Shown here: positions 5,360-29,501 of the stretch, piece after piece
Layout of the letters: each line of letters opens with the position of its first letter
Numbering within the stretch: the first letter of the stretch is position 1
Source: a virus
Direction: 5' to 3' (one strand)
IMG/VR virus record: IMGVR_UViG_3300042922_000923
Location: 32,001-96,000 of that record
Length of the DNA: 64,000 bases
The notes under the pieces: model-generated
The model's database searches: none
Told to the model about the DNA's origin: nothing
What the model saw: only the letters and a program-made list of their open reading frames with translations
Translations under genes and position numbers: made by a program

Positions 5360-5370
5360 AATAAAATCCT

Positions 5371-5429
5371 CCTTATATATGTATAAAGAGGATTTAACAG
5401 AAATTATTTAAAATACTTCCACTTAGAAA
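5371..5429 (-). promoter_or_regulatory. Phage-specific promoter-like motif upstream of DNA polymerase
   Basis: TTCTAAGTGG AAGTATTTTAA ATAATT ... TTTATACATATATAAGGAGG. Confidence 0.65.
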
Positions 5430-5505
5430 AATAAAGACCAACTAAAAGTCAGCCTTTATTTTAACTATAATTTTATTCAGTTAATTATATTAAGAAGTTT
5501 TTTCA

Positions 5506-5865
5506 CTATTCTTTTACTGGAACAGGCCTCCAAGCCTCAGGATCTAATTTAGAAGCTGCATTTTTAAGTTCAGTTCCACCTTTAATGGAAACACCAACAG
5601 TTTCTGGAATTAAATTTTTTTGCTTTTTAGAAATGTCGTTAGCTTCTCTTGCTGCTCTATAAATTGGTGTTGCTATAAAATAGCCTGTTAATTGCACAGC
5701 TTCTCCCTTGCCAATATGACTAGCTACAAATTCTTTCTCTGCATTCATAATAGCTTTAACAGTATCCTTTGGAAACTTAGTTTTCTCCATAATTTCTTTT
5801 ACTATTACCTCAGTAGTAACCTTTGGTGCAACTACTTTTTTTGTTTTAGTTTTTTCTGTTTTCAT
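5506..5865 (-). CDS. HU/IHF-family DNA-binding protein (TF1-like)
   Basis: GEAVQLTGYF...RAAREA...IPE..V.IK.G.ELK pattern; upstream of polymerase as in SPO1-like phages. Confidence 0.85.
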   Translation of the reverse strand: MKTEKTKTKKVVAPKVTTEVIVKEIMEKTKFPKDTVKAIMNAEKEFVASHIGKGEAVQLTGYFIATPIYRAAREANDISKKQKNLIPETVGVSIKGGTELKNAASKLDPEAWRPVPVKE

Positions 5866-6012
5866 GGTAATTCCTCCAATATCTATATTAAAACTTAGCT
5901 TAAGACGATTATCTTAGCTCTTTTTTATTATATACACTATTTTTTCCAGTTACTCCTATTATTTATATATTTTTTATTATTTTACCAAAATTCCAATGTG
6001 TAGTCAATGTTG

Positions 6013-6210
6013 CTAGTCATTTTCATAGGAGTATTCAATCAAAGCTAGTAAGTCATCTTTAGGTAATCCTAAGTCTTTGAACGATTTTATTGTAGAAACT
6101 AACATGTTAGATAAAGTATCTATAGTTTCTCCTTTAATATCTGCTTTTATAGTCCCATTTTTAGTAACATTTACTAAAATATGGTTCTTTGAATTAAATG
6201 TAGCTATCAT
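6013..6210 (-). CDS. Hypothetical protein
   Basis: 65 aa ORF with RBS. Confidence 0.55.
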   Translation of the reverse strand: MIATFNSKNHILVNVTKNGTIKADIKGETIDTLSNMLVSTIKSFKDLGLPKDDLLALIEYSYEND

Positions 6211-6258
6211 AGAGCACTTTCAACTCCCTTTACTATTTTATAATTATTAATCTTTATA

Positions 6259-6723
6259 CTACCATTTTATTAAGCCTTTCTCACCTGCTGATTCAAGTCC
6301 AGTTTTTGCAGGTCCAAATAGCTCCAATTTCTTAATTTCATCAGGATACATCCATACCCACCCACTCATTTCAGAAGGTTGAGGCTTAACTTCACCTGAG
6401 AAACTATGTGTTATAAACATAAATGATATCCACATCTTTTCCTCATTACCTGATCCTCCATTATTATACGCGCCTACGTGTACATCATAACAGTCTAAAT
6501 TTTTAACATCTAAGTTACATTCTTCCTTTACTTCTCTTATTGCCCCTTCAAGCACTGTTTCTTGTGTGTCCGTTTTCCCTCCAGGAGTTCCCCATGTTCT
6601 AGTATCAGTTCTAACGCCTACAAGTATTTGTCCTTGTTTATTTACAATAATGACTCCAGCTCCCCAGTTTTCACCTGCTTTTTTTCTTAGTTGTGTTATG
6701 GTCCTTTTGTCTATTTCGTTCAA
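6259..6723 (-). CDS. Nudix hydrolase
   Basis: Nudix box GGKTDTQETVLEGAIREVKEE. Confidence 0.9.
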   Translation of the reverse strand: MNEIDKRTITQLRKKAGENWGAGVIIVNKQGQILVGVRTDTRTWGTPGGKTDTQETVLEGAIREVKEECNLDVKNLDCYDVHVGAYNNGGSGNEEKMWISFMFITHSFSGEVKPQPSEMSGWVWMYPDEIKKLELFGPAKTGLESAGEKGLIKW

Positions 6724-7126
6724 TATCTTCAGTCCCTTCCATTACTTCTTCAATGTAACCACATTTATCAGAGTATAGATATCTACTATTCTCTTTACCA
6801 GGTACTTCACCATACCAAGGAAACTCAGAACAAACTCTAGGCCTAGTCTCATGAACAGTACACAAATTTTTAGATTCATCAAATTTAGTACAAGTATAAT
6901 AAAATACTTTATCAGAATCATAAAAAGGCCAAGTTTTTAAATAAGGATTAATTTCTAAGGCTTTTTCCATAGTAATAGGTTTCCAAAATAAATAGGCAAA
7001 TTCCATATCTGTATAGTTATCTATGGATTTTGGAAAATCACCAGTCCATATTCTATTTGCAATATATTCAGGACTTAAGTTTATTCTTATTACTCTACAG
7101 CAATTTCCACACATCTTACAAGGCAT
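6671..7126 (-). CDS. YkgJ-family CxxCxxCC cysteine-cluster protein
   Basis: CKMCGNCC ... CTKFD..NLCTVHETRPRVCSEFP. Confidence 0.85.
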   Translation of the reverse strand: MPCKMCGNCCRVIRINLSPEYIANRIWTGDFPKSIDNYTDMEFAYLFWKPITMEKALEINPYLKTWPFYDSDKVFYYTCTKFDESKNLCTVHETRPRVCSEFPWYGEVPGKENSRYLYSDKCGYIEEVMEGTEDIERNRQKDHNTTKKKSR

Positions 7127-7725
7127 TATGAAACTAAACCTTCTTTCATCATATAATTTCTTAGCTTCTTAACTGCCCTTGCATCAAGTCTGGAAACATA
7201 AGATTGTGTTAATCCTATAGCATTAGCCACTTGAACTTGAGTATAGTTTTTAAAATATCTATATTCAATAATTTCTCTTTCTTTTTCAGAAAGGGTTTTT
7301 AAGGCACATATAAGTAGCTCTTTATTTTCAATAGATTCGTATGAATCTTCATTATATTCAAGCATTTCTGATAGAGATACCTTGTCATTAGTAGTATAAT
7401 CCACAACTATAGGTGCATCTAAATATGCTAGATTTATACGTTGAAATTTTGTACTATTAATTCGTCCAGCATAAACAAATTTATCAGCATGTACATAGTT
7501 ATAAATATAACCAACAATAAATTTTGAAGCATAAGTAGAAAACTGAATATTCTTCTTAGGATCAAAACGTTTAGATGCACTTATTAGACCTAAAGTTCCT
7601 ATTTGAATTAGTTCATCTTGAGAGTATATATCCTTGAATTTTGGATATAATGTTTTGTGAACTAAGCTATAAACCAATTTTAAATTTTCCTCTATTCCAC
7701 TACCTCTTTCCTTTGTTTCATTCAT
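7126..7725 (-). CDS. Sigma-70 family factor, SigF/SigG-like
   Basis: Region 2 ENLKLVYSLV..DELIQIGTLGLISASKRFDP..FSTYA; region 4 LSEKEREIIEYRYFKNYTQVQVANAIGLTQSYVSRL. Confidence 0.9.
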   Translation of the reverse strand: MNETKERGSGIEENLKLVYSLVHKTLYPKFKDIYSQDELIQIGTLGLISASKRFDPKKNIQFSTYASKFIVGYIYNYVHADKFVYAGRINSTKFQRINLAYLDAPIVVDYTTNDKVSLSEMLEYNEDSYESIENKELLICALKTLSEKEREIIEYRYFKNYTQVQVANAIGLTQSYVSRLDARAVKKLRNYMMKEGLVS

Positions 7726-9155: not shown

Positions 9156-9791
9156 TTATTTGAATACATTGTAAGCTTGTTCTCTAATTTCCTTTAAACC
9201 TTTGTTTAAATCATTTATGGATATTCCTAGTGATCTTGCAATATGGTGCATTCTTAAATTCATGGATCTAGTTACTCTGACTTCGCTATGACCTTGATCG
9301 TGTAGCATTTTCTTTCTAGCTTTGTCCATATTAAGCTCCCAAATAGTTCTATCTGATGGTGATAATAGCTCTTCTAAAATTGCTGAAGCAACTATGTTTC
9401 CAGATAGAAGTTCTTGTAGCTGAAGCAAACCTTCTTGAACATAAATGTTATTTAAGTTATCATCTAGTTTTCCCTTAGAATCTTCATACTCAGAATCAGA
9501 AATCTCTCCATCATCTAGTTGTACTAAATTATTGTAAGACACTTGATTGGAATCTAAATTTCCTTTTTTAATTTTATTGCATAGTAACCTTTTTAAACTT
9601 ACAGAGAATATAGTCTTAAATTCTTCAATAGGCTTATCTCTATACCTATTCCAGCACTTATAAAGAACTATTAAACTATCTTGATAAAAGTCGTTTCTGT
9701 CATATGCCTGAGAGTTAGGTATATATTTTCTAGTTACAAAATGTATTAAATTTGAAAATTTACTTGTTGTTTCCTCAAATGTTAAATCCAT
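9156..9791 (-). CDS. Sigma-factor-like DNA-binding protein
   Basis: Region-2-like YDRNDFYQDSLIVLYKC; C-terminal HTH MHHIARSLGIS. Confidence 0.7.
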   Translation of the reverse strand: MDLTFEETTSKFSNLIHFVTRKYIPNSQAYDRNDFYQDSLIVLYKCWNRYRDKPIEEFKTIFSVSLKRLLCNKIKKGNLDSNQVSYNNLVQLDDGEISDSEYEDSKGKLDDNLNNIYVQEGLLQLQELLSGNIVASAILEELLSPSDRTIWELNMDKARKKMLHDQGHSEVRVTRSMNLRMHHIARSLGISINDLNKGLKEIREQAYNVFK

Positions 9792-11714: not shown

Positions 11715-11884
11715 ACTTTCTTCTCCTTGACATTGATTCTTTTTACATCTTTATAATAAAATGCTGACCTTTTTCCTTCCCAACTTACATTTACTGTGTC
11801 TCCATATATAGAAGCAACAATTCCTTTATAAGCCACTTTCTTATATGTTATTTCAACTTCTTCCTCTTTTTTAAAATCATTCAT
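11711..11884 (-). CDS. Small SH3-like hypothetical protein (57 aa)
   Basis: Manual ORF MNDFKKEEEVEITYKKVAYKGIVASIYGDTVNVSWEG...; overlaps neighbours' stop/start codons. Confidence 0.55.
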   Translation of the reverse strand: MNDFKKEEEVEITYKKVAYKGIVASIYGDTVNVSWEGKRSAFYYKDVKRINVKEKKV

Positions 11885-13245
11885 TATAAATTATCACTCC
11901 CATCCATAACAATATCTTCTTCATCACCTAAATTTTCATCATCATCAGTAACAAATTTATCCACTGTAAGAACTTTTCTATCTCTATAGTCCTTTCCTTG
12001 AAGAGTCATGTGGTCCTTATTATCTCTGTTCTTAGCTATAAAGTATCTCATAATCTGTGCCTTTTGTTCTTTTACAGATTGACATAAAGCTATCATAGCA
12101 TCAGCTGAATTTGCTATTGCAAAGCATTCTGCAAGGTCTGCCATAGTTACAACTTTCTTACTTAATGCAGTTCTATTACACTGTGCTCCAGTCCATACAG
12201 CACAATCAAATTCATCAGCAATAGTTCTAATTTCAAGGTAAATAGCTTCAAATTCATCTCTTTTATCCTTGTATCCAACAGTGGACCTAAGTAGAGCACC
12301 ATAGTCAATTACTACAAGGTCAGGAGTAACGCCCTTAACATTTTGAAGTTGTTTTATATAGGCCTTAAGAGTATTAACAGTTGCACCTTTTACAGGGTAC
12401 TTCTTTATGAATAACTTTCCCTTTGAATATTTTTTACGGTTTAAGATAGCATTAATTACTCTAGATACGTTATCTTTAACATACTCAAATGGTTTCTTAA
12501 CAAACCTTAAGTCATAGTTTCTCGTAACTTGCTTTTCATTATTTTCAAAGAAAAAGTGAACAACGTTATATCCAGATTCAACAGCTGCTGCACCTAAATT
12601 TTGTAATTTTGTGGTTTTTCCACGACCTGGAGGTGCAATTATAATTCCCATTTCAGATCTACCTAGACCTCCATTGAAAATATTATCTAGCAATGGTTGC
12701 CCTGTAGTTATTCTCTCAATTACATCTGAAGATTCTCCATAGTTTGTTATTCTCTCATTTACATCTTCAAAGTACTCTACGCCTAAGTCATTTACTTGAC
12801 CTACTAGCATTGCCTCTTTTATCAAAGTTTCAATCTTTTCATATTTACCATTATTTTTAATAATTTCTGCACTTTCTAGAATTGCTTCAGTCAAAGCCTG
12901 ACTTCTTCCAAATTCAACTATTTTGTCCTTTGTGTACTCAGAAGAAGTTAGGTCATATGAAAATACGTGAGATATAGCCTCAATATAGTCTTCTTCTAGC
13001 TTCTCCTTTATCTTTGAGCCTTTAGTTAACGTACTTATTTCATTAATTAAGGCATCCATTGTAATGGATTTATTGTACTTTTTGTAATAATCCATTGTAA
13101 TTCTACAAATGTCATTGTGCACTTCTTTTTCAAAGTACCTAGGTTTAATGCACTCCTTGTATATCTCATAGGAGTTTTTATCTTTTATTAGTAAGGCAAG
13201 TATGTTTTCCTGCATAGTCTCTGTAAAATTATAACTGTCACTCAT
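11884..13245 (-). CDS. Replicative DNA helicase, DnaB/gp41-like
   Basis: Walker A APPGRGKT, VVIDY, WTGAQCNR, AKNR; start refined to MSDSY by AAGGGGG RBS. Confidence 0.92.
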   Translation of the reverse strand: MSDSYNFTETMQENILALLIKDKNSYEIYKECIKPRYFEKEVHNDICRITMDYYKKYNKSITMDALINEISTLTKGSKIKEKLEEDYIEAISHVFSYDLTSSEYTKDKIVEFGRSQALTEAILESAEIIKNNGKYEKIETLIKEAMLVGQVNDLGVEYFEDVNERITNYGESSDVIERITTGQPLLDNIFNGGLGRSEMGIIIAPPGRGKTTKLQNLGAAAVESGYNVVHFFFENNEKQVTRNYDLRFVKKPFEYVKDNVSRVINAILNRKKYSKGKLFIKKYPVKGATVNTLKAYIKQLQNVKGVTPDLVVIDYGALLRSTVGYKDKRDEFEAIYLEIRTIADEFDCAVWTGAQCNRTALSKKVVTMADLAECFAIANSADAMIALCQSVKEQKAQIMRYFIAKNRDNKDHMTLQGKDYRDRKVLTVDKFVTDDDENLGDEEDIVMDGSDNL

Positions 13246-13299
13246 ATAGGTCCCCCTTAAGTTTATTAGTAATATCAAAATTTCTAATAAAATAGTCTT

Positions 13300-13356
13300 A
13301 CTAAATATAAAAAAGATAGATTTGGAATAATTATTTCCAAACCTATCCACTTAGAG
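13300..13356 (-). promoter_or_regulatory. Phage-specific promoter-like motif with embedded hairpin
   Basis: CTCTAAGTGGATAGGTTTGGAAATAATTATTCCAAATCTATCTTTTTTATATTT. Confidence 0.65.
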
Positions 13357-14181
13357 TTATGCATATGAGAGTAAAAGTTCCTGTTTAGATGGAGTTTCTG
13401 GTATCTCAAATTTATTTTCAATATTTCTAAGCATACTTTCTATAGCTTGCTTAGTCTTTTTATTTGAAAGTATTTTATTAACCTTTTCTAGCTGCTTTTT
13501 AGAATCAGAATCTGCAACTTCTTTACAGTATTCTTCAAGGGTTTCTATTAACCAATCACAGGTACTAATATAATACACGCTTAAGGATAACCAATTGTTA
13601 TATAATACAAAAATTTTCTTTTCGAGAGCTGTGCTATCCAGTGTAGAATATTTAATACCATTCTTTATAATTTTACAGTCATTTATTAATGCTTCTGATA
13701 TCTCTTCCCTCACTGTTTTTATTTTATTAGCAGTAAAAGCTGTACCATCTGCTTCATGCTCCTGAATTTTTCCTTTAATGTATCTATAGTAATGTGCTAT
13801 AGCTCTTTGAGAACATAGCTGTTGAGGATATATTCTACCATCTGAATTTTCCCAGTATTCGGCACGATCAAACTGAGAGTCTATATAGATAAAGGTATCC
13901 CAGTTACGCTTTATGCACAAGTTGCATACATTAGCAAAAAATTTCCAATTTTTATGATGTGTAGGATCTTTCCTACTAATTGCATTAAATCCATCTAGAT
14001 TTAAAAGTGTTCTAACTTTATATCCATAATAAGCTGCTACAGCTATAATATCTTCTTCCGTAGCATTTCCTAGTATCTTTAATGATTCTAATTTTTCCTT
14101 GCATTTTTCAAGCATACGTGCCTTAGGATCATAAATGGAAATTCTAAGTATACTTTTTGATTTAATAGCTTTTCTCTTCAT
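13357..14181 (-). CDS. Hypothetical protein between the two helicases (possible replication accessory/regulator)
   Basis: 274 aa ORF; position as in SPO1-like replication modules. Confidence 0.6.
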   Translation of the reverse strand: MKRKAIKSKSILRISIYDPKARMLEKCKEKLESLKILGNATEEDIIAVAAYYGYKVRTLLNLDGFNAISRKDPTHHKNWKFFANVCNLCIKRNWDTFIYIDSQFDRAEYWENSDGRIYPQQLCSQRAIAHYYRYIKGKIQEHEADGTAFTANKIKTVREEISEALINDCKIIKNGIKYSTLDSTALEKKIFVLYNNWLSLSVYYISTCDWLIETLEEYCKEVADSDSKKQLEKVNKILSNKKTKQAIESMLRNIENKFEIPETPSKQELLLSYA

Positions 14182-14185
14182 AGAA

Positions 14186-14395
14186 TCACACTTTCATATT
14201 ATTTACATCTTCTAGTAAGGAATATATAATATACGAGACACATACAGCTAAAGCTATAAGATATACAATCCGGAAGCTAAAAGGATCAGGGTATATCATA
14301 CCTATAATTATATTTGCTGTTCCAAATATAATGTAACACACATATATTTTACTTACCTTCCAACATTTTTTTATAAATTTATTAATCCTCAGCAT
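14186..14395 (-). CDS. Small membrane protein
   Basis: Two TM helices. Confidence 0.5.
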   Translation of the reverse strand: MLRINKFIKKCWKVSKIYVCYIIFGTANIIIGMIYPDPFSFRIVYLIALAVCVSYIIYSLLEDVNNMKV

Positions 14396-15872
14396 TTGAT
14401 ATTTCCTCCCAAGTTTCCTTTTTCATAGGATCTATCATTTTTATTTCAAATTTTTCCTCTTTTAAAACTGTATATCTATCTAAATTATGCTTCTTTAAGT
14501 TAGCTCCAGTAAAATCTAAGAAATCATAGAATCTAAGGCAACTTCCATCCTTTTTCTTTCTTAGTCCTCTTCCTAAGCCTTGAAGTAGTTTCCTGGGAGA
14601 CTTTTGACCTCTGGCATAGATAATTGCATTTATATTGTCAGTATCAATACCTTCATCTAGAACAGATGTTGCTATTAATACATTTATATTACCTGCTTTT
14701 AAATCTTCTAAAATTTGTTTTCTTACTTTAGTAGTTCTGCCTCCATGTGTAAATTCTATGGTACCTAGTGCACAACTATTTTCTAAGAGGTCCTTTAGGA
14801 GTTCTCCATGTTCTGTATGTTCTACAAGTATTAAAATATTACTATTGAGCAGCTTACGTTCTTTTTCAGCAATAATACGAATGAATTTATTTCTTAATGG
14901 ATTATTTGTTATGCACATGCTATATTCTTCAGCATAGTCAAGTATGTCATTAGGTTCTGGAGATTTTACTTCTATAAAATAGCACTTAGGTCTAGCTGAA
15001 GCATTTATGCTTATGAGGTATTCATTAGAAATATTTACGGTTGGTGTTCCAGTATATCCCATGACCATATGCTTTTCTATCTCTTTATCAGGAAGGGTAC
15101 CTGTTAAACCAATTCGTATTGGTGTAAGGTCTAATTGATTTAAAACTTTTTTATACGCTACTGAGGATGCATGTTGAACTTCATCAATAAAGATTGCTCT
15201 AATAGACCTAGCAAAATCTTTAAACTTTTTTTCTTTTATATGCTTTGATAGAGTAGGAATTAAACATACTGTTATTGTTCCTTCGCTCCATTTTCCAGCA
15301 CCTATTGTTCCAACGAATATACCTGGAAACGCTGTATTAAAATTTTGTATAGTTTGAAACAATAGTTCTTTAGTTGGAACAATAAATAGGATTCTTTCGT
15401 CTGTTTGTATCTTTTTTAGAATTTCATTCATAATAGCTTGTGCTGTAACAGTTTTACCTGCATTTGTAGCCATCTTTAAGATACCTCTATAAAAGTTCAT
15501 AGACCCTATTTTGTTATTTATAATAGAATTTACTGCATCCACCTGATAGTCTCTTAGACTTTTTTCACCAATAGAATAGCTGCTGTCTATTGCTTCTAAT
15601 TCTATTGCTGCTGGCCTCTTATCAATAATGCTGTAAGGTTCTTCATACTGTTCAAGAACCTCTATAAGTATAGGTAGTAAGCCAGTCATAAGCTCATTTC
15701 TTTCAAAAAAGTTTTTCTCTCCATTCCAATGACCAGCTCTGAAGGTAGGTGAAAAATAAGCTCCAGGAACTTTAAAAGTAAATCGTTGAGTAACTATTCT
15801 CCATAAAGCTGTTCCTATATCCTTAACTTCACATTTATCATTTCTTACTAAAATTTCTAGCAATTTACTCAC
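14382..15872 (-). CDS. SF2 helicase (UvsW-like)
   Basis: LRDYQ, ATNAGKT, DEVQH, TGT, QGLGRGLR. Confidence 0.92.
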   Translation of the reverse strand: MSKLLEILVRNDKCEVKDIGTALWRIVTQRFTFKVPGAYFSPTFRAGHWNGEKNFFERNELMTGLLPILIEVLEQYEEPYSIIDKRPAAIELEAIDSSYSIGEKSLRDYQVDAVNSIINNKIGSMNFYRGILKMATNAGKTVTAQAIMNEILKKIQTDERILFIVPTKELLFQTIQNFNTAFPGIFVGTIGAGKWSEGTITVCLIPTLSKHIKEKKFKDFARSIRAIFIDEVQHASSVAYKKVLNQLDLTPIRIGLTGTLPDKEIEKHMVMGYTGTPTVNISNEYLISINASARPKCYFIEVKSPEPNDILDYAEEYSMCITNNPLRNKFIRIIAEKERKLLNSNILILVEHTEHGELLKDLLENSCALGTIEFTHGGRTTKVRKQILEDLKAGNINVLIATSVLDEGIDTDNINAIIYARGQKSPRKLLQGLGRGLRKKKDGSCLRFYDFLDFTGANLKKHNLDRYTVLKEEKFEIKMIDPMKKETWEEISNAED

Positions 15873-15930
15873 TCCTTTATCTATATAAAAGAAAAGAGAA
15901 CAGAAATTATTTTCTGCTCTCCAGTTAGAA
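15873..15930 (-). promoter_or_regulatory. Phage-specific promoter-like motif with embedded hairpin
   Basis: TTCTAACTGGAGAGCAGAAAATAATTTCTGTTCTCTTTTCTTTTATATAG. Confidence 0.65.
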
Positions 15931-15969
15931 GACTATTAATTATCATAGTATGTTTCAAAATTATTTGGT

Positions 15970-17163
15970 TTATTTATCAACAGTGTTACTAAAGGATATA
16001 TCAAGTTCTTTTAAAATTGTTAAATCATTGTATTTACCTTTAAAACAAATTCTAGGATTTATAGCTATAGCTCGTTTTCCTTTAAATCTAATTATTTTTA
16101 GTACAGGTTCTCCATAAACTGTCATAGCCAGAAACTTTCTTTTGAATCTTGTTATATTAGATTCATGTATTAACATAGATATTTCCATTAGTGTATAAGG
16201 TTCTATTCTTGATATATCTGGTTCAGAAGGGTTTTTACAACAGATATTTGTCTTAAAATGTAAATAAGGAATCATTCTATATAATAGTGATAGCTGTGCA
16301 TGTTCCCTTGGTGTAGAGTTATCATATAGCTCTTTTAATGCAGCACTAAAAATTCTAATTCCATTGTTATCATATTTAGTACAACTACCTTTTGAGGAAT
16401 ACTTTCTATTGATTCTAAATGTTTCATTAGCAGTAAAAGTAATTAATTTATAGTTTATAAGATTCTTTCTAAGTTTATAAGCATCTGTATTACTTAATTT
16501 AATAATATTTTTAAACTCTTTAGTTGTCACAAGTTTTTCTCTTTTAGTTGCTATATAATTTTTATAAGTCATATGGCAACATAAATAAAGAAACCTAGCT
16601 AGTAATGCAGAAGGAGCATCAGATAACAATTTTTCTTCGTAATTAAAGAAAAAGTAAGTGCCATAAACACAAGCTATTGAATCACTATATCTTTTAATGC
16701 TTTTGTAAGGTGCAGTAGTATTATTTAATAAATCTTGAACCAGAGTATCTTTCAAGTCTAGATCATTATTTTTTCTAAATAGAGAAATAATCCTTTTAAA
16801 CACCTTTCTATCTTCATCTAAGTCTTTTCCAATGGTCATATTTCCTAATAAATATTCTGTTAGTGTATCCTCAATGTTATACCCAGCCTCTAACGTGTTA
16901 TACTTTCTTATAAAAATGTCCTCACAAACAACTAGAACGTATTTATCTATAGGACTCTTAATGTCATCTCCTAAGACTTTTATAGCTTCAAATTTAAAAT
17001 TTTCTCCTCCATATTGCTTCCATTCACTCTGTAACATTTTATTTTTGTGCGTATAGTTATTTAACTGTCTTTTATGATCTGACCATCTTTTTTCTATGTC
17101 TAAAGTTTCACCAATATACATTTTATTATTAATTGTATTAGTTATTTTATAAATTCCCCTCAT
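15970..17163 (-). CDS. GIY-YIG endonuclease fused to RepL-like winged-helix domain
   Basis: GIYKITN..NKMYIG..RW..H; C-terminal half paralogous to 17185..18096, ending INPRICFKG. Confidence 0.75.
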   Translation of the reverse strand: MRGIYKITNTINNKMYIGETLDIEKRWSDHKRQLNNYTHKNKMLQSEWKQYGGENFKFEAIKVLGDDIKSPIDKYVLVVCEDIFIRKYNTLEAGYNIEDTLTEYLLGNMTIGKDLDEDRKVFKRIISLFRKNNDLDLKDTLVQDLLNNTTAPYKSIKRYSDSIACVYGTYFFFNYEEKLLSDAPSALLARFLYLCCHMTYKNYIATKREKLVTTKEFKNIIKLSNTDAYKLRKNLINYKLITFTANETFRINRKYSSKGSCTKYDNNGIRIFSAALKELYDNSTPREHAQLSLLYRMIPYLHFKTNICCKNPSEPDISRIEPYTLMEISMLIHESNITRFKRKFLAMTVYGEPVLKIIRFKGKRAIAINPRICFKGKYNDLTILKELDISFSNTVDK

Positions 17164-17184
17164 ATATTATCATCTCCACGTAGG

Positions 17185-18096
17185 CTATAGTAATTCTTCA
17201 TTATAACTACAAATTTGATTTTTAGCTGCATCAAATAGCAAACCTAATCCTTCCATTCTCTCAATATCTCCAAAGCTCCCTTTAAAATAGACTCTAGGAT
17301 TCACAACTACAATTTGATTTCCTTGAATTTCAGATATACATATAACAGGTTCACCTGCAACTGTCATGTCTAGCAACCTTCTTCTAAATCTAGTTATATT
17401 ACTTTGATGAAGTATTTTTGCAAGTTCCTTCAGTGTGTATGTTTCTAATTTGAGAGGATCACGCTCTGTAGGATTAGCACAACAGATATTCATACTAAAA
17501 TTTATATAGGGTAACAGTAAGTACAATAGAGCTAGTTGAACATGTTCTCTAGGTAAAGAGTTCATGTACAAGTCCTTTAAAGCATCTTCAAACACTCTTA
17601 CTTTTTCTTTACTTTTTGAAATTCCTTTTTTGCAATAGGATCTATTTACTCTAAGTTTTTCATCATCACCTAGTATTAGTAACCCATATTTAAACAAAGT
17701 AACTTTAGTTTTATAAAATTCTGAGTATTTCAAATTCAAAATTTCTCTTAAGTTATCTAGATTCATAGGTGTCTTATCACTATTTATTAATCTATTTTCA
17801 TAATCCATAAAGCAGCAAGTATACAGGAATCTAACTAGCATTTGAGGTGAAATTATGGATAAGGGTTTTGAATAAAAATTAAAATAAAAATTACCATAAG
17901 TATTAATCATATCTGAATTATTTTTCATTTTGCATTTTTCTTTCAATTTAAGTTCTGCGAGTTTATCTGATTTTCTATCATTATAGTTTATAACATTTGC
18001 TATAGTATTTAAAACTGCTGGAGAATTAACGTCCAATTCATTTCCGAATAGCTCTTTGTAAGTCTCAAACTCTTTAGAATATTTAGTATTTTTCAT
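17185..18096 (-). CDS. RepL-like replication/DNA-binding protein
   Basis: RFLY..C.MDYEN, VNPRVYFKG; start refined to MKNTK by AAGGAGG RBS. Confidence 0.55.
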   Translation of the reverse strand: MKNTKYSKEFETYKELFGNELDVNSPAVLNTIANVINYNDRKSDKLAELKLKEKCKMKNNSDMINTYGNFYFNFYSKPLSIISPQMLVRFLYTCCFMDYENRLINSDKTPMNLDNLREILNLKYSEFYKTKVTLFKYGLLILGDDEKLRVNRSYCKKGISKSKEKVRVFEDALKDLYMNSLPREHVQLALLYLLLPYINFSMNICCANPTERDPLKLETYTLKELAKILHQSNITRFRRRLLDMTVAGEPVICISEIQGNQIVVVNPRVYFKGSFGDIERMEGLGLLFDAAKNQICSYNEELL

Positions 18097-18131
18097 AGTA
18101 GCCTCCTTATTAATTATCATGTAGTAATATT

Positions 18132-18364
18132 TTACAATCTGTAACTTTTATAAAAAGTAAAATTACTATATAGTATTGTTATACCAGTAACATAGGATAG
18201 TTAAACATGTATATTTTATTTTTTATAAAAAAAATTTACTAGGTAGTAATAAAACTGTTATTCGTTACAATCTGTAACAAATAAAATTATTTGTAAATAA
18301 GTGTTTTATTGAAAGTATTCCTAGCTTTAGGTATAGAAATATAAAATAATACCATTACAATCTA
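18132..18364. repeat. Repeated palindrome GTTACA-ATC-TGTAAC (operator/iteron candidates)
   Basis: TTACAATCTGTAAC 18132-18145, GTTACAATCTGTAAC 18264-18278, partial TTACAATCT 18355-18363. Confidence 0.7.
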
Positions 18365-18450
18365 TGAAGACTTTTAAATAAGTTTTCAAGAGCTACTTGA
18401 TAAAATCATAAAAATTCGTTCTTTTATCTTGTACTACTTTTTAGTTAAAA

Positions 18451-18623
18451 TGGTTGCGATTGAGCAACCAGATTTAATCTGAAAACCAACATAAGGTACC
18501 TAATGTAGAAAAGGAATCATTGCAATTTATTCTGCATAAACACATCAGGGTAATTGCCCTTCCAGGTTGGCTAGTGTTTGCTTCGCTGCACATATCCAAC
18601 ATTCCAGTTCAATTACCCTGATG
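18451..18623. other. Structured non-coding segment (origin hairpins or ncRNA)
   Basis: TGGTTGC/GCAACCA hairpin 18451-18470; CATCAGGGTAATTG 18543-18556 / CAATTACCCTGATG 18610-18623 with inner GTTGG/CCAAC. Confidence 0.55.
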
Positions 18624-18665
18624 AAAAAAATTTATTCTCTTTCTTTTTTAAGTAGAAGGGATTAA

Positions 18666-18893
18666 TTAGTCTCTATCTTTTTCAATTTTTCGCACCAAAA
18701 TTCCCTCTTCAGTAAACTGAACACTAATATATGGATCATCCTCAGTAATTCCTTGTGCCTTAAGCCAGCTATATGGAATACTTATCTTTGTGCTTATAGA
18801 TCCTGAACCTCCTTTTGGAAAAATAACTTTTCTAGTAACTGGTTCCTCAGTATCTATTTTCCCACTTCCTTTAGGTCTACCCACATTTAACAC
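18666..18893 (-). CDS. AbrB/MazE/SpoVT-family DNA-binding protein with AT-hook-like N-terminus
   Basis: GRPKGS; GGSGS.STKISIP.SWLK..GIT.DD. Confidence 0.75.
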   Translation of the reverse strand: MLNVGRPKGSGKIDTEEPVTRKVIFPKGGSGSISTKISIPYSWLKAQGITEDDPYISVQFTEEGILVRKIEKDRD

Positions 18894-19164
18894 CTACTTT
18901 CCAATATTCATTGTCTGTGCCCTTTCCTATACAACCAATTTCAGTATATTCTTTACCATCAATTAACACTGTGTTGTATGCTGATGCTATAGTACTACGC
19001 ACATAAGTTTTACTTTTGTGTGCATAGATAGCAGCTTTCTTCTTTCTACCTTGTCCATCATAAATTACTGTAGCATTTCTTACTTTTTGCACTATTCCCA
19101 CTTCCCTTTTTTGTAGTCTATTACTATAAGTTTCCCTGCGTTTTCTATTGCAGCCTTTCCCCAC
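18877..19164 (-). CDS. Hypothetical protein
   Basis: ORF in early-gene array; true start probably downstream (~19091). Confidence 0.5.
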   Translation of the reverse strand: MGKGCNRKRRETYSNRLQKREVGIVQKVRNATVIYDGQGRKKKAAIYAHKSKTYVRSTIASAYNTVLIDGKEYTEIGCIGKGTDNEYWKVGVKCG

Positions 19165-19421
19165 TTAGTATCTTCTTGAATAGATACTCTTACATGCTCA
19201 CAATTATTTTCATGTAAATATTCTATATATTTACTTAATGCGCTAGGCTTATGTGAATCATACTGTTCTATTAGATCATGAACTAACTCTAGTTTTCCTT
19301 GTTGTCTATAAAAATCATTTCCTTCGCATCCACTAAAATCCTCTAGATGTTCCTCAAGTTTCTTTAATTCATTAACATGGATTACACCATCATAATTTAC
19401 ATGTGTACCAAAATCTTTCAT
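19092..19421 (-). CDS. Hypothetical protein
   Basis: 109 aa, AAGGAGG RBS. Confidence 0.7.
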   Translation of the reverse strand: MKDFGTHVNYDGVIHVNELKKLEEHLEDFSGCEGNDFYRQQGKLELVHDLIEQYDSHKPSALSKYIEYLHENNCEHVRVSIQEDTKWGKAAIENAGKLIVIDYKKGKWE

Positions 19422-19687
19422 TACTTATCCTCCTTTGACAGTTCATATATAGAATATCCCCAAGCAAGTTCATCATTTAATACGCTTAAAACTATATAAT
19501 ATGTTACTCTATTTTTCCATATATTTTTGTAAACTCCATATTTTTCAGCGTTATTAATTAGTACAGCTGTGTCTCCTAGATTAAAGTTACCTGAAATTCC
19601 TATTTCCTCTTTCAATAGTTCTAGTGCTTCCTCTGACTCCATTACCTTATTAATTTTAGTTTCTGTTAATACTTTTATTTTTTCCAT
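19421..19687 (-). CDS. Hypothetical protein
   Basis: Start refined to MEKIK by GGGAGG RBS. Confidence 0.65.
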   Translation of the reverse strand: MEKIKVLTETKINKVMESEEALELLKEEIGISGNFNLGDTAVLINNAEKYGVYKNIWKNRVTYYIVLSVLNDELAWGYSIYELSKEDK

Positions 19688-22775: not shown

Positions 22776-23699
22776 TTATATTAAACTCCAGATAACTCCA
22801 GTATTTTTAAGTTGTTCTAAGTAATCGTAGAATCCAATATCAAGCTTATTTCTTGAAATTGTAATTATAGCTACTTCAATTAAACTTATAGCTTGAGCTT
22901 CTGTTAGGTCTATTCCAGTTACAACAGACATTCTATCTATTTCTTCTTTAGTTGGAGTATACAATATATCACAGATATCTTCATTTAACATTTCAGAACA
23001 TTTTACATTTAATGTTAATGCAACAACTTTCTTTAGATCCTTGTGTTCCTCAATCTCAATATTTGTTAAATCTGTATATTCAGTGATTTCTTTAATAGAC
23101 TTTTGAAGTAAACTTCTCTTAAATTCATAGTAGTCAGGGTATGATGTAGGAGAAAATCCTAGTCTTTCCTTAAGTTCCTCTAATTTAAATTTTCTTCCTC
23201 CTTGTGCTACGCTATCTTTTAGTAGCTCATATAGCCTGAAAGAAGGTGTTTTCTTAAATTTTAGTACAGCATTATATCTGTATTTTCCATAAAGTTCCTT
23301 TAGTGCTAGTAAGTCTACTATAATATCTGGATTAAACATTATATCTATACATCTTTCCTTAGTGTTGTATTTAAATGCACCTATTCTAGTCTCTTTATAT
23401 AATCCATTATCTTGAAGTTTCAGTATCTCCTTAGAATCTAATGTACCTGCTGCATCCTTTAAAAGAATATAGAGGTTATTGCTGTTAACATTATATTGAT
23501 TTTTAAAATCAAGTACAGAGACTTTTACTACATCAAAATTGTGTTCTTTGTATGCATTCCTAATTTCAGACGTTTTTATATTTAATTTCATGTAGATAGG
23601 TCTGAGTCTACTACATGCTAAATAAATAATTCTTTGCTCAGTAAGTGATAAGCTATAATTGCTGTCTATAAGAGTATTTATTCTATTCATATATCTCAC
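22776..23699 (-). CDS. Plasmid replication initiator, Rep_3/RepB family
   Basis: NTLIDSNYSLSLTEQRII, SFRLYELLK, LEELKERLG...YYEFKR..L..SIKEI..YTDL. Confidence 0.8.
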   Translation of the reverse strand: MRYMNRINTLIDSNYSLSLTEQRIIYLACSRLRPIYMKLNIKTSEIRNAYKEHNFDVVKVSVLDFKNQYNVNSNNLYILLKDAAGTLDSKEILKLQDNGLYKETRIGAFKYNTKERCIDIMFNPDIIVDLLALKELYGKYRYNAVLKFKKTPSFRLYELLKDSVAQGGRKFKLEELKERLGFSPTSYPDYYEFKRSLLQKSIKEITEYTDLTNIEIEEHKDLKKVVALTLNVKCSEMLNEDICDILYTPTKEEIDRMSVVTGIDLTEAQAISLIEVAIITISRNKLDIGFYDYLEQLKNTGVIWSLI

Positions 23700-24306: not shown

Positions 24307-25029
24307 GTGTATAATAAAAATATTTTTAGTGACAACGAATGCTCTGTATCTGTGAATGGAGAGTATATAGGTAAGGCTACATTAAAAAGTTCTAAGATAA
24401 ATAATGAGTCAGCTTCAGATGATGATAAAGAAAATAAAATACAAAAAAGATGTGTTGGCTGTGCTTATCCAGCAAGTATTAAATTAACAGATATGCTAAT
24501 AGATCAGTTATCTGTGCCTAGTTATACTGAGAAACTAGCAGAAGTTAAGAATACCCTTAGGGTACTTACTGGTAAAGACTTTGAGATCTATTACACTAAC
24601 TTAGGTAAAATATTGCAGGAAATCACTAATTATGCTCATGAGCATAATCAAATTCCTAAAAATGAAATACTAGTAGCAGGTTTATGTGATAGTCCTGATG
24701 ATTCTAATAATATAATATTTTTTGGAAGAATGAACATGGATATCTTTAATGGTGTTGATATTTCAGGTAGTGATCCTCAATTTAGAGTTATTTCTAGAAT
24801 GCATAGTGCTTTAGGAGCTACTGAGTATTCTCCATTTAAAGGATCTTTTTCTATAGAATTTAAAAATACTGTAGACACCATAGAAGATTTGATAAAGGAG
24901 ACAATAATAGGTTCAGACTGTATTTCGTCATTTAAGGGAAACAAGCTAGACAACTCTGAGAAACGTGGTAAAAAAGGAAAAAAGATTAGGAACTGGGAAA
25001 AGAAGTGCTTTTGGCAGAAAGGGAGATAA
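24307..25029 (+). CDS. Hypothetical protein
   Basis: 240 aa ORF. Confidence 0.65.
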   Translation: MYNKNIFSDNECSVSVNGEYIGKATLKSSKINNESASDDDKENKIQKRCVGCAYPASIKLTDMLIDQLSVPSYTEKLAEVKNTLRVLTGKDFEIYYTNLGKILQEITNYAHEHNQIPKNEILVAGLCDSPDDSNNIIFFGRMNMDIFNGVDISGSDPQFRVISRMHSALGATEYSPFKGSFSIEFKNTVDTIEDLIKETIIGSDCISSFKGNKLDNSEKRGKKGKKIRNWEKKCFWQKGR

Positions 25030-25031
25030 CA

Positions 25032-26162
25032 ATGGAAATAGGATTTTTAGGAGATATACATTTTGCAGAATATAAAGACTTTAGTACAGATGTACTTGTG
25101 GAATGGGATTCTGTTAACTTAAAATATATAAAATCAGATATTGGTAAAAAAATGAACTCAAGGCTTCTCGATATTGCTAACGCAATGATAGAAGCTAGAG
25201 ATTACTTTATTGCTAATGAAATTAAATTAGTTATTATAACTGGTGATATTTCTCATAATAGAGGTGCGGTACCTACTATTGTTCAGAATGTAGAGTACAA
25301 CATACTTGAGAGCTATAAGCATTCTGGAATTGAAGTTATAATTAATCCTGGTAATCATGACCAGGTATCAAATGAGGATTTTCCAGAAAATAGCTTAACT
25401 CCATTTAGAAATATTGCAACAATTATTGAGAAGCCTACAATACTGCTTAGAAATAACATTAATATTCTATTTGTTCCATTTTCAGCTAATAAAAGTATAG
25501 TAATGGATGCTATCAACGATTTTAATCCAAAATCTACTTTTGATTCAAATATTATAGTAGCTCATTTAGGTGTTTCTGGAGGTTTTACCGGAAAAAATTC
25601 ATATGTACTAACAGATCAATATGAACCTGAGGAACTAAGATACTTAGATGAAGACATTGATTTGATAGCTTTAGGCCATTATCATAAGCCTCAGTTAGTT
25701 GAGGGAACTTTGAATAAAGTAATATATACTGGTTCCCCTGTTCCAGTTAGCTTCAATGAAGAGGGAGAAGAACATGGATTATGGATATTTGATACAAGTA
25801 CTAAAGCAATGTATATGCATCCTCTTAAGTCTCCAAAGTTTATTACTCTAAATAAGGAAAACTATTCTGACTTTTCTACTGAGGATTTGAAAGGAAACTT
25901 TGTTAGGATTGTAGGTAACTTAGAAGAAGTTGCAGACATTAATGCAGCAGTTACTATAGATCCTGAAGATAAGAATATAGAAAATAATATGATTAGGATA
26001 GAGACTCAAAAGGAATATGAAGCTGAACATAGAAGTGATATAAATCCTGAAATGAGTTATGCAGAATCTGTATTTAAATATGCTGAGGAAAATGATTTTA
26101 CTGAGGAACAAGTAGCAACTGGAATTGAAATATTAAATTCTGTCTTAGAAAACTATAATTAA
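25032..26162 (+). CDS. sbcD: SbcD/Mre11-like metallophosphoesterase nuclease
   Basis: GDIH, TGD, GNHD, AHLG, LGHYH, YTGSP. Confidence 0.92.
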   Translation: MEIGFLGDIHFAEYKDFSTDVLVEWDSVNLKYIKSDIGKKMNSRLLDIANAMIEARDYFIANEIKLVIITGDISHNRGAVPTIVQNVEYNILESYKHSGIEVIINPGNHDQVSNEDFPENSLTPFRNIATIIEKPTILLRNNINILFVPFSANKSIVMDAINDFNPKSTFDSNIIVAHLGVSGGFTGKNSYVLTDQYEPEELRYLDEDIDLIALGHYHKPQLVEGTLNKVIYTGSPVPVSFNEEGEEHGLWIFDTSTKAMYMHPLKSPKFITLNKENYSDFSTEDLKGNFVRIVGNLEEVADINAAVTIDPEDKNIENNMIRIETQKEYEAEHRSDINPEMSYAESVFKYAEENDFTEEQVATGIEILNSVLENYN

Positions 26163-27530: not shown

Positions 27531-29501
27531 ATGAAATTTAAGAACTTAGTTGCTGAAAACTTTTTGTCAATTTTAAATTTAGATATAAACCTTGATAACC
27601 AGGGACTTACCCTTATTCAAGGCGATAATCAAGATGATAATAACTTTGAATCCAACGGTGCAGGTAAAACTACTTTTATGGATTCAATTTCGTGGGTGCT
27701 TTATGGAAAAACCTTAAAAGGTTTAAAGGCTGATGAAGTACTGCACAATAAAGTTAAAAAAAATTGTATGGTATCATTGGAGATAGAAGACGATAATGGA
27801 GATAATTACAAGGTTGTTAGAGGCAGAAAACATAAAGAATATAAAAATAGTGTGCTTATTTTTAAAAATGAAACTAATATTACTGGAAAAAGTGATAAGG
27901 ATACTAATGACTTTATAGAAAGTTTGCTTCAAATGTCCTATGATGTTTTTGTTGCCACAATACTGTACAGCAGCAATTCATTCAAGTTTACATCTGCTAC
28001 AGATTCAGAAATGAAAAAATCATTAGATAACATGCTCAATATGGAATTTTGGAATCTATGCTTAGATGAAACTAAAAGGCGCATAGATGAAGTGAAGAAA
28101 GAAATAAAGGATATTGAAGTTTCCATAGACAAAGGTATTTTGAATCAGAATAACTTGATGGAGCAAAAGAAGTTATTAACTGGTAAGTCTATAGAGGCTA
28201 AGACTGCTGGTATCAAAAAGAAGCAGGAGCTTACAGACAGATTAGAAACTGCAAAAAAGGAGCTTAAAGGCCTAAAAGATAGCTCTGAAGACGAAACTGT
28301 TATTAGAAAAATGATTGATGTAGCTACTAAAAAAATATCTGAAATTACTAAAAAGCTTGATGAATTTGATGATGTATTTGATGATATAAATAAAAATAAG
28401 GCTATGATTTCAGAAATAGAAGGACTAATAAAAATAAATACTAATGCTATAAATGACTTAACAACTAAGGCTGATGCTATATTAAAAAAATTAGATGATA
28501 AAAAAGCTTTGATAGGCACAGAGTGCCCTGTTTGTGGTTCAGAAATTACTGAGAAGTCACTAGAGGGTGCAACGAAAGAAATGCTTATGGAGCTTCAAAG
28601 TATAATACAGGAGCGAAAAACAAAAAAGGCCTCAAAAGAAAAGCATGAAAAGCAAGCAGAATTTTTCAAAGAAAAGGTCAAAGAACTTCAAACTAAATAT
28701 GAGCAAAGAAAGCCTTTAACTGATGAAAAATCTAGCTATGAACAAGTATTAGCAAATAATAAGGCCAAATTAACTCAAAATTCTAAATTAAAAGAACTCT
28801 ATGAAAAATCCAAGAAGCAGTATACTTCTTTAATAGCTACTCTAGAAAAGGATATTGAAAATATTGAGAGTCCTAAAGAAGATACTTATGCTCCTGAGAT
28901 TGATAATATATCTGTTAAGATTGAGAATTGTCTTAAGGAGCTTCAGGAATCAAGAATACTTCTGGAGGAAAAAAATAAAAAGCTCTCAAATTTAGAAGTT
29001 TGGTTAGATCCTTATTCAAATAAAGGAATAAAAAGTAGGCTTTTAGATAGTGTAACACCTTTCTTAAATAAGCAATCTAATTACTATTTAGGAAAGTTGA
29101 CTTCAGGATCTATAGAAGTTGAGTTTAAAACACAGGATACAAATAAATCAGGAAATACCCATGATAAGCTTACTTTAAATATTACTAATAAAAATGGTGG
29201 AGATAAATATATATCTAATTCAGATGGAGAAAGAAGAAGAATTGATATATCTGTTAACTTAGCTCTCCAGGACCTTATTAGTAATAGAAGTACAAAGAGA
29301 ATAAACGTTGCATTCTATGACGAATGCTTTGATTCCTTAGATGGTGTAGGTTCTGAAAGAGTTATAGAAATTCTTAATGAAAATAAAAATAATAAGTCTT
29401 CTATTTTTGTAACTACGCATAAGGATGACTTAAAAGCATTTTTTGATAAATCTATTACTATGGTAAAAAAGAATGGATTTACAACCTTAAAAGAAAATTA
29501 A
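27531..29501 (+). CDS. sbcC: SbcC/Rad50-like ABC ATPase
   Basis: Walker A SNGAGKT, coiled coil with CPVC zinc hook, signature variant SDGE, Walker B FYDECFDSLD, TTH. Confidence 0.93.
   Translation: MKFKNLVAENFLSILNLDINLDNQGLTLIQGDNQDDNNFESNGAGKTTFMDSISWVLYGKTLKGLKADEVLHNKVKKNCMVSLEIEDDNGDNYKVVRGRKHKEYKNSVLIFKNETNITGKSDKDTNDFIESLLQMSYDVFVATILYSSNSFKFTSATDSEMKKSLDNMLNMEFWNLCLDETKRRIDEVKKEIKDIEVSIDKGILNQNNLMEQKKLLTGKSIEAKTAGIKKKQELTDRLETAKKELKGLKDSSEDETVIRKMIDVATKKISEITKKLDEFDDVFDDINKNKAMISEIEGLIKINTNAINDLTTKADAILKKLDDKKALIGTECPVCGSEITEKSLEGATKEMLMELQSIIQERKTKKASKEKHEKQAEFFKEKVKELQTKYEQRKPLTDEKSSYEQVLANNKAKLTQNSKLKELYEKSKKQYTSLIATLEKDIENIESPKEDTYAPEIDNISVKIENCLKELQESRILLEEKNKKLSNLEVWLDPYSNKGIKSRLLDSVTPFLNKQSNYYLGKLTSGSIEVEFKTQDTNKSGNTHDKLTLNITNKNGGDKYISNSDGERRRIDISVNLALQDLISNRSTKRINVAFYDECFDSLDGVGSERVIEILNENKNNKSSIFVTTHKDDLKAFFDKSITMVKKNGFTTLKEN

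Follow-up and report, generated by a model that had tools for sequence, protein, structure and literature searches.

The GIY-YIG homing endonuclease I-TevI is a modular protein, in which a nuclease domain is followed by a linker and a DNA-binding part; the C-terminal part contains a zinc finger, a minor-groove helix and a helix-turn-helix. Odn (Gp88) of the Vibrio phage ICP1 was described as an origin-directed nuclease (Barth, Nguyen & Seed 2021, PMC8263062). According to that report, the DNA-binding domain of Odn is 42% identical to the origin-binding domain of RepA of the satellite PLE, and its nuclease belongs to the GIY-YIG superfamily, as do those of the homing genes of ICP1 itself. Odn was reported there to cut the satellite origin, to need three semi-palindromic iterons, and to be escaped by the satellite through small spacing changes. 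In our study, we analysed a stretch of viral DNA of 64,000 nucleotides (the window), which comprises bases 32001-96000 of the 131,110-bp virus record IMGVR_UViG_3300042922_000923, rated 90% complete. Two adjacent genes on its minus strand, named here ORF A and ORF B, were found to encode paralogous proteins, and ORF B was found to contain an additional N-terminal GIY-YIG domain. We favour the explanation that ORF B is a chimeric, sequence-directed GIY-YIG endonuclease, in which a homing-type nuclease became fused to a gene of the ORF A family; the chances for and against this explanation appear evenly balanced.

BLASTP found 97/236 identities (41%, E 2e-62) between residues 65-296 of ORF A and residues 156-391 of ORF B. 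An earlier reading of this DNA from its letters (the sequence-only reading) had reported two adjacent genes sharing a domain of about 230 amino acids, and all five motif pairs quoted there lie within the alignment. The PHROG profile assigned the shared part to phrog_9501, a family of uncharacterised function. The family alignment stretched the likeness to about residue 17 of ORF A and residue 115 of ORF B, so that ORF B contains nearly a whole copy of ORF A behind approximately 100-110 nuclease residues. Translation of ORF A most likely starts nine codons into the listed open reading frame, at the ATG at 18096, because GGAGG is present 5 nt upstream and the same start was found in the two closest relatives. 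ORF B begins 21 nt past the stop codon of ORF A, and its start is preceded by GGAG. The two genes are framed by terminator-like hairpins (Table 1) and thus form a transcription unit of their own.

The identity between the winged-helix domains of ORF A and ORF B was uneven, with 36/108 residues identical in the first domain (WH1) and 52/97 in the second (WH2). The putative recognition helices, placed from the AlphaFold2 (AF2) model of ORF A, shared 3/13 residues in WH1 and 9/13 in WH2; a diverged WH1 helix together with a kept WH2 helix fits a related but shifted DNA specificity of ORF B. In a tree of 75 family members, the family part of ORF B was sister to the clade of ORF A and its two 73-75% identical relatives (SH-aLRT 99). 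The branch of the ORF B part was about 15 times longer than that of ORF A (1.55 vs 0.10), in a quick maximum-likelihood tree whose careful search was unfinished and whose long branches are uncertain. ORF B retained 22 of the nearly invariant positions of the family. The prediction of an ORF A-ORF B heterodimer scored 0.04 against a mark of 0.32, which is no evidence either way.

The N-terminal GIY-YIG domain noticed by the sequence-only reading was confirmed by profile. Residues 3-66 of ORF B matched Pfam GIY-YIG (PF01541) with 38.6 bits against a cut-off of 22.6, and the nuclease part matched TIGR01453 (group I intron endonuclease) with E 1.5e-14. Residues 2-100 aligned to the catalytic domain of I-TevI (1mk0, 1ln0; E 3e-11), and Y5, Y16, R26, H30, E81 and N90 aligned to its motif positions, all six of which were kept; 1mk0 is the E75A mutant and 1ln0 the R27A mutant, and the mutated residues identify these two alignment columns. 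The six residues correspond to the catalytic positions of this nuclease type, namely the GIY tyrosine, the YIG tyrosine, the arginine, the histidine, the glutamate and the asparagine. The motif glutamate is named as catalytic in PMC8263062. The domain is the sole GIY-YIG domain in the 131-kb genome. In ORF B it is joined through a linker to a separate domain of DNA-binding type, and the type of that domain is unusual for GIY-YIG homing endonucleases.

The GIY-YIG fusion was found to be a singleton among the family members examined. A search with ORF B in an index of 5.8 billion proteins, over the length range of 218-695 amino acids, returned no other protein with both parts; with ORF A, the same index returned no fused form above 531 amino acids, which is weak evidence. 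Among the best 150 of 1465 family representatives, GIY-YIG was present in ORF B alone, and all others were 179-355 amino acids long. The sequence-only reading had considered co-occurrence of the pair and the upstream palindrome in other phages; the tandem pair or the fusion was present at 0/27 related loci of virus and metagenome collections, some of which are duplicates. A scan of genome contigs gave two loci (Clostridiaceae bacterium and Clostridium sardiniense), without a fusion at either.

Two other cases bear on the origin of the fusion. On a phage contig of 136 kb (L006), a family gene (5812-6750) is preceded, at a distance of 5 nt and on the same strand, by a GIY-YIG gene with a frameshift (5010-5806). 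At a further locus with matching gene order (L012), a 152-aa gene directly abuts the family gene, with no nuclease gene between. The two loci share only patches of similar DNA, and what is compared is therefore their gene order and not a clean insertion boundary. In P0070, a family representative of 355 amino acids, about 100 residues like the nicking endonuclease of phage T5 precede the family domain (104-352). This N-terminal domain was supported by PDB 9qgv (E 0.0035) and by 16 Atlas matches in PF26848 at 0.94, and gave no Pfam match at E 0.05. Two or more fusions to the family, involving different nuclease folds, are therefore probable. The L006 and P0070 cases together indicate that genes for homing-type nucleases become established 5' of family genes. 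A XerD-like recombinase gene follows in L006, past the GIY-YIG and phrog_9501 genes.

The sequence-only reading knew of no described system with this architecture, a statement which Odn overturns, since it provides a precedent. With Odn as reported in PMC8263062, ORF B has in common that a GIY-YIG-superfamily nuclease of homing type is joined to a diverged winged-helix module copied from another gene, at a similar identity (approximately 42% for Odn and 41% for ORF B). The copied module of Odn is of replication-initiator type, a likeness that ORF B would share if ORF A, whose resemblance to initiators is sub-threshold, were an initiator. The Odn target consists of three semi-palindromic repeats, and the spacer upstream of ORF A likewise contains three candidate sites. 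In the same source, the DNA-binding part of Odn is N-terminal and a T5orf172 nuclease is C-terminal, whereas the order is reversed in ORF B and its nuclease is a canonical I-TevI-type GIY-YIG domain. The DNA-binding family is RepA_N in Odn but phrog_9501 (RepL/O-like) in ORF B, and the donor of the Odn module resides in a hostile satellite, whereas a donor-like gene lies next to ORF B in the same genome. The two are likened by architecture. New with respect to Odn are the nuclease type, the domain order, the DNA-binding family and the presence of an unfused paralogue and candidate sites beside the chimera in one operon.

With I-TevI and the free-standing GIY-YIG homing endonucleases, ORF B shares the catalytic domain with all its motif positions. 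Like I-TevI it has the modular nuclease-linker-DNA-binding build, and a double duty as nuclease and repressor is possible. Unlike in I-TevI, the C-terminus of ORF B is a tandem winged-helix protein of 280 amino acids which also exists as a separate gene, and no intron is involved. The phage T5-type nicking endonuclease (PF26848; 9qgv) is comparable through P0070, which carries such an HNH-like domain, with modest support, at the same N-terminal position; the domain is absent from the window. In a literature search that did not cover subscription journals, none of the papers listed dealt with a GIY-YIG fusion to a RepL/O-like tandem winged-helix protein.

The phrog_9501 family was found to be widespread. 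A profile of 22 members retrieved the 1465 representatives at E <= 0.001 among 1.84 billion cluster representatives (50% identity). Using tblastn, members were located in Clostridioides, Clostridium, Paenibacillus and Bacillus, in phages as well as in phage-like plasmids, and the annotation in these matches was always hypothetical or 'DNA binding'. The AF2 model of ORF A (predicted local distance difference test, pLDDT, 83) contained a long N-terminal helix, winged helices at residues ~70-175 and 180-270, and a C-terminal helix. The most specific Foldseek matches of ORF A were 5kbj, 4pql and 4pta, the DNA-binding domains of staphylococcal multiresistance-plasmid initiators (prob 0.99, ~95 columns, E 0.03-0.04). 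A weak match of 216 columns was found to the WH1-WH2 Rep protein 8ac8 (TM 0.29-0.37, E 0.18), and many MarR, IclR and DtxR-type repressors were also among the neighbours. The wide VIA-align search gave generic winged-helix matches (Z 6-7.5) for residues 71-175, the first winged helix. A sequence search of the PDB with the family profile gave nothing meaningful.

The label RepL-like, given by the sequence-only reading, stood in part. The tandem winged-helix fold agrees with it, and weak RepL matches were found in 7/57 relatives (best E 1.8e-5), along with weak Phage_rep_O matches in 16/57 (best E 7.1e-5). The representative P0066 reached 16.8 bits against RepL. RepL was present on 10-36% of the members of the nearest Atlas clusters, one of which is named replication/maintenance protein RepL, and the viral models of BFVD included several 'replication initiator' entries and one RepL. 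ORF B itself matched Phage_rep_O (PF04492) on the first winged helix with 14.8 bits (E 0.041; cut-off 28.7), and neither ORF A nor ORF B matched RepL (PF05732, cut-off 20.3 bits) at E up to 1. Both proteins thus lie below the RepL and Phage_rep_O thresholds, and the family is not a member of RepL. We describe it as a family of RepL/O-like tandem winged-helix DNA-binding proteins, possibly initiators or regulators of replication or maintenance. RepL and the N-terminal domain of lambda O resemble it through these weak, recurrent matches and the RepL-annotated Atlas neighbours, whereas phrog_9501 is about twice as long, has two winged helices and a long N-terminal helix, and often co-occurs with a true Rep_3 initiator.

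Rep_3-type initiator dimers bind inverted repeats at their own promoter. The Rep_3 initiators of the WH1-WH2 type (RepE/pi/RepA) share the tandem winged-helix architecture with ORF A; however, the structural match is weak, and no sequence relation was found between the family profile and the Rep_3 protein of this phage (hhalign probability 0.8%, no Rep3 Pfam match). Circumstantial functional evidence for an initiator role came from the circular 6.7-kb plasmid pTP3 (NZ_CP102986.1, locus L048), where a family member (3324-4307, minus strand; hhalign 99.9%) is the only protein with a replication-type signal. Its neighbour is a serine resolvase gene running across the start of the record, and a perfect 15-nt inverted repeat (4354-4394) was found 47-87 nt upstream of the family gene; pTP3 is a good minimal system for the function of phrog_9501. 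A simple initiator role is made less likely by the presence of a true Rep_3 together with a family member, as seen in this phage and in a C. perfringens plasmid of 13 kb. In other phages, its neighbours were tyrosine recombinases, DNA methylases, a large terminase or a ParB-like protein, and not helicases. Of 18 other family genes examined, three were preceded by a perfect palindrome near -50, and the repeated 9-mers upstream of other family genes showed no common architecture. Two contigs, of 124 kb and 63 kb, were found to contain two dispersed family copies each (L005 and L011; L023 and L037), and the copies L023 and L037 appear split into two ORFs.

With its start at 18096, ORF A is preceded by a non-coding spacer of 569 bp (18097-18665), close to the approximately 540 bp described by the sequence-only reading, which had also noticed a repeated palindrome, large hairpins and a superfamily 2 (SF2) helicase just downstream; all of these were recovered (Table 1). 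The perfect 15-mer GTTACAATCTGTAAC occurs once, and a 14/15 copy was found at 18131-18145; the 14-nt palindrome TTACAATCTGTAAC is present twice in the spacer, once inside the perfect 15-mer. By chance, 0.24 such matches are expected in the window, and 2/100 shuffles reached two. The 13-mer core was found exactly only twice in the 131,110-bp genome, both times in the spacer, and three of the four copies of the 9-mer TTACAATCT in the 64 kb lie inside a 232-bp part of the spacer. The A+T content between the sites (18146-18264) was 82%, against 69% for the whole window, where the G+C content is ~31%. The proximal palindrome may be an operator or a binding site. The sole copy of the core with one mismatch, TTACAAACTGTAA, was found at G000:C1:13821-13833, at the 3' end of a small ORF and ~1.4 kb from an ALP/ParM gene, and may be due to chance.

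Seen from ORF A, the hairpins are at the distal end of the spacer, next to the AbrB-like gene. The region 18451-18625 was found to be GC-richer, with 61% A+T against 74% for the spacer, and 18430-18665 taken as RNA gave a folding z of -3.8. No further copy of the arms of the long hairpin was found anywhere in the genome. These hairpins look like the 3' end of the upstream operon, namely a 3' untranslated region (UTR) with its terminator, or may belong to a small RNA. Rfam gave no family at gathering score in the window and only a chance-level snoRNA match (E 0.65) in 18050-18950, and no tRNA was found. A distant search of phage records with the spacer returned only a 41-nt AT-rich patch.

The explanation of ORF B as a chimeric directed nuclease rests on its intact, I-TevI-like nuclease, on the unique fusion and on the nuclease gene which abuts a family gene in L006. 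An I-TevI-type homing-endonuclease gene would have been situated directly upstream of a copy of the phrog_9501 gene, would have shed its own linker and DNA-binding part, and would have been joined, in frame, to an almost complete family protein. ORF A, probably an initiator or a regulator of replication or maintenance, would most likely bind as a dimer to the TTACAATCTGTAA palindromes at its own promoter and regulate the A-B operon. ORF B would dock by its diverged winged-helix pair on the same or a variant site and cut at a distance set by the linker helix; cutting near the docked site is proposed by analogy with I-TevI and Odn. The target would most likely be a variant of the A-type site in rival phages or plasmids, which would lead, among related phages, to homing or marker exclusion, or else to an Odn-like destruction of the origin or control region of a competitor. 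No candidate for such a rival element was found. The own sites of the phage might be spared through the shifted specificity, or because the cleavage-motif spacing is missing, as at the I-TevI operator. Of the two roles offered by the sequence-only reading, the retargeted homing endonuclease thus fits better, and the device for origin recognition and nicking was weakened by the Rep_3 gene and by the singleton fusion.

If ORF B is active, it would add to Odn a second natural and independent example of a homing-type nuclease redirected by an initiator-like DNA-binding module. The unfused parent gene and the candidate sites lie beside ORF B, so the transfer of specificity is directly testable with one protein pair and one 570-bp fragment. 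The shuffling of nucleases with DNA-binding domains of replication or regulation would then be a general route to new sequence-directed phage nucleases, and the T5-nickase-like fusion in P0070 points the same way. ORF B would also offer a first way into the function of phrog_9501, which is uncharacterised yet widespread in phages and plasmids of Bacillota, the large plasmid-prophages of Clostridioides difficile among them.

Several points weigh against the chimeric-nuclease explanation. If the specificity of ORF A had been kept in ORF B, the perfect palindromes of the phage genome itself would be endangered. Pfam gave no match on ORF A, and as the RepL/O likeness is sub-threshold, the family can be called origin-binding only tentatively. 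Palindromes at so few of the other family loci are not a visible family hallmark, so binding to such sites is no general pattern. In the AF2 model of ORF B the C-terminal part had a pLDDT of 85-95, whereas the nuclease part was poorly modelled (27-60), so the integrity of the nuclease is judged from its sequence. No close phage relative was located, and a presence/absence contrast resembling that of a homing gene was seen only between L006 and L012. The singleton fusion could, moreover, be a recent accident without function.

Such a functionless accident would mean that a homing gene landed between two family genes and is decaying, and that the in-frame junction is a chance deletion product not yet purged. 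The uniqueness of the fusion is in keeping with this, the long branch of ORF B could mean relaxed selection, and the GIY-YIG gene of L006 is already frameshifted. However, ORF B has an open frame of 397 codons with all six nuclease motif positions intact, the confidence of the winged-helix prediction is high, 22 nearly invariant family positions are retained, and the gene has its own ribosome-binding site within a terminator-framed operon. We consider the accident unlikely.

The chimeric-nuclease explanation was also weighed against a replication-start device, in which ORF A would mark an origin in the spacer and ORF B would nick or cut there to prime lytic or recombination-dependent replication, with Rep_3 serving plasmid maintenance, as in a P1-like pair of replicons. 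The pair heads a module with the SF2 helicase, a DnaB-like helicase, a Holliday-junction resolvase and PolA, and the three sites flank the AT-rich DNA of the spacer. The family leans to initiators by its weak RepL and Phage_rep_O matches, its Atlas clusters and its BFVD models; pTP3 contains a family member as its only Rep-like protein found, beside a resolvase; P0070 bears a nickase-type domain; and the phage has traits of a plasmid-prophage (Rep_3, ALP/ParM, no tyrosine integrase found). On the other side, a core device would be expected in relatives, whereas the fusion is a singleton, and the neighbours of the family elsewhere are recombinases, methylases, terminase or ParB rather than helicases. 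Judged by its profile matches, the Rep_3 protein 4.6 kb upstream is the bona fide plasmid-type initiator of the phage. No tandem repeat (iteron) array and no DnaA box were found in the spacer. I-TevI-type GIY-YIG enzymes make double-strand breaks for homing, and we know of no replication initiator built on a GIY-YIG domain. A replication-start device is, on balance, improbable.

A third possibility is that ORF A and ORF B act mainly in the control of transcription, for instance in an early-to-middle switch, with the palindromes as operators; the nuclease would then be secondary, and ORF B would mostly repress its own operon, as I-TevI does. The position of the proximal palindrome shortly before the start codon of ORF A, where it overlaps a -10-like hexamer, agrees with this, as do the repressors among the fold neighbours and the location of the family at module borders in other phages, where regulators sit. 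I-TevI itself represses at its operator, a role cited in PMC8263062. Against this, no sigma-70-type promoter was called on the minus strand at the spacer; a sigma factor gene and a second, weak candidate are present in the downstream module, so that promoters here may deviate from the sigma-70 consensus used in the scan. Upstream palindromes are, as noted, scarce at other family loci, and intact catalytic residues would be left unexplained. We regard a chiefly regulatory role as quite improbable. Very improbable, finally, is the broader proposal that the RepL/O-like family is a recurrent chassis for natural nucleases (GIY-YIG here, T5-nickase-type HNH in P0070), and that ORF A marks the three-site AT-rich spacer which ORF B breaks, so that lytic, recombination-dependent replication would begin at an origin additional to the Rep_3 replicon.

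Table 1. Features of the ORF A-ORF B locus and its surroundings (positions in the window).
Feature	Position	Strand	Basis or remark
ORF A, 303 aa, stand-alone tandem winged-helix protein of phrog_9501	17185-18096	-	phrog_9501 E 3.1e-32
ORF B, 397 aa, chimera: GIY-YIG nuclease, then near-full-length ORF A paralogue	15970-17163	-	phrog_9501 E 5.9e-29
GIY-YIG catalytic domain, I-TevI type (ORF B residues 1-100)	16864-17163	-	Pfam, TIGR01453, PDB matches
Paralogous part of ORF B (residues ~115-394): linker helix and two winged-helix domains	15982-16821	-	BLASTP, family alignment, AF2
Non-coding spacer upstream of ORF A, 569 bp	18097-18665		Three sites, AT-rich stretches, 3' structures of upstream operon
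Proximal palindrome TTACAATCTGTAAC, 14 nt	18132-18145		36-49 nt before ORF A start codon; overlaps minus-strand TAAAAT -10-like hexamer
Distal perfect palindrome GTTACAATCTGTAAC	18264-18278		Pattern search
Third, degenerate site TTACAATCTATGA, 2 mismatches	18355-18367		Pattern search
Intrinsic-terminator-like hairpin with T run, ending the upstream operon	18451-18470	-	Terminator scan
Long hairpin, 14-bp perfect stem, GC-richer, just after AbrB-like gene	18543-18623	-	Arms 18543-18556 / 18610-18623
Terminator-like hairpin after ORF B	15895-15922	-	Terminator scan
SF2 DNA helicase (ResIII / UvsW-like)	14382-15872	-	ResIII E 2.4e-23, Helicase_C E 5.4e-15; first gene of downstream replication module
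AbrB/MazE-like gene, 75 aa	18666-18893	-	phrog_2329
Rep_3-family iteron-type initiator	22776-23699	-	Rep3_N E 1.1e-20, Rep3_C E 4.8e-13, both above cut-off; phrog_4402 replication initiation protein

In the ORF list of the window, ORF A and ORF B were found among consecutive minus-strand genes, which are transcribed in the order Rep_3, about a dozen small genes, the AbrB/MazE-like gene, the spacer, ORF A, ORF B and the SF2 helicase. The Rep_3 gene is situated at a divergent junction, where the cumulative GC skew turns; beside it, only weak two-copy repeats and no clear iteron array were found. Beyond the SF2 helicase, a 274-aa protein of phrog_14232 is followed by the DnaB-like helicase, and further downstream by the Holliday-junction resolvase, a sigma factor, a NUDIX hydrolase, an HU-like protein and the family-A DNA polymerase (PolA). 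Two minus-strand genes of this replication module, at 7126-7725 and 9156-9791, comprise a phage sigma factor (phrog_351 E 1.2e-37) and a second, weak Sigma70_r2 candidate.

Two sequencing runs matched the stretch, both of soil metagenome DNA and both possibly its source, and no RNA run did; the contigs of these runs gave, at 80% likeness, only short diverged fragments, none of which spans the region. The megablast search of 11800-19500 against phage records gave no match, and relatives sought via the SF2 helicase were only 24% identical. In the 131-kb genome, no match to a tyrosine integrase or to ParA (AAA_31) was found. The StbA_N profile gave no match either, but neither did its control, so that this blank carries no weight. 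With Rep_3 and ALP/ParM present and a tyrosine integrase and ParA not found, the phage looks like a large plasmid-type phage or plasmid-prophage. Clostridioides difficile phages of ~130 kb are described as large plasmid-type phages in PMC5786514. The actin-like ALP/ParM segregation gene, the only one in the genome, lies outside the window on the minus strand (G000:C1:12035-12445; ALP_N E 2.5e-22). Just past the Rep_3 junction, SbcD- and SbcC-like nuclease genes were found on the plus strand at 25005-26162 and 27531-29501, followed by a DHH phosphoesterase.

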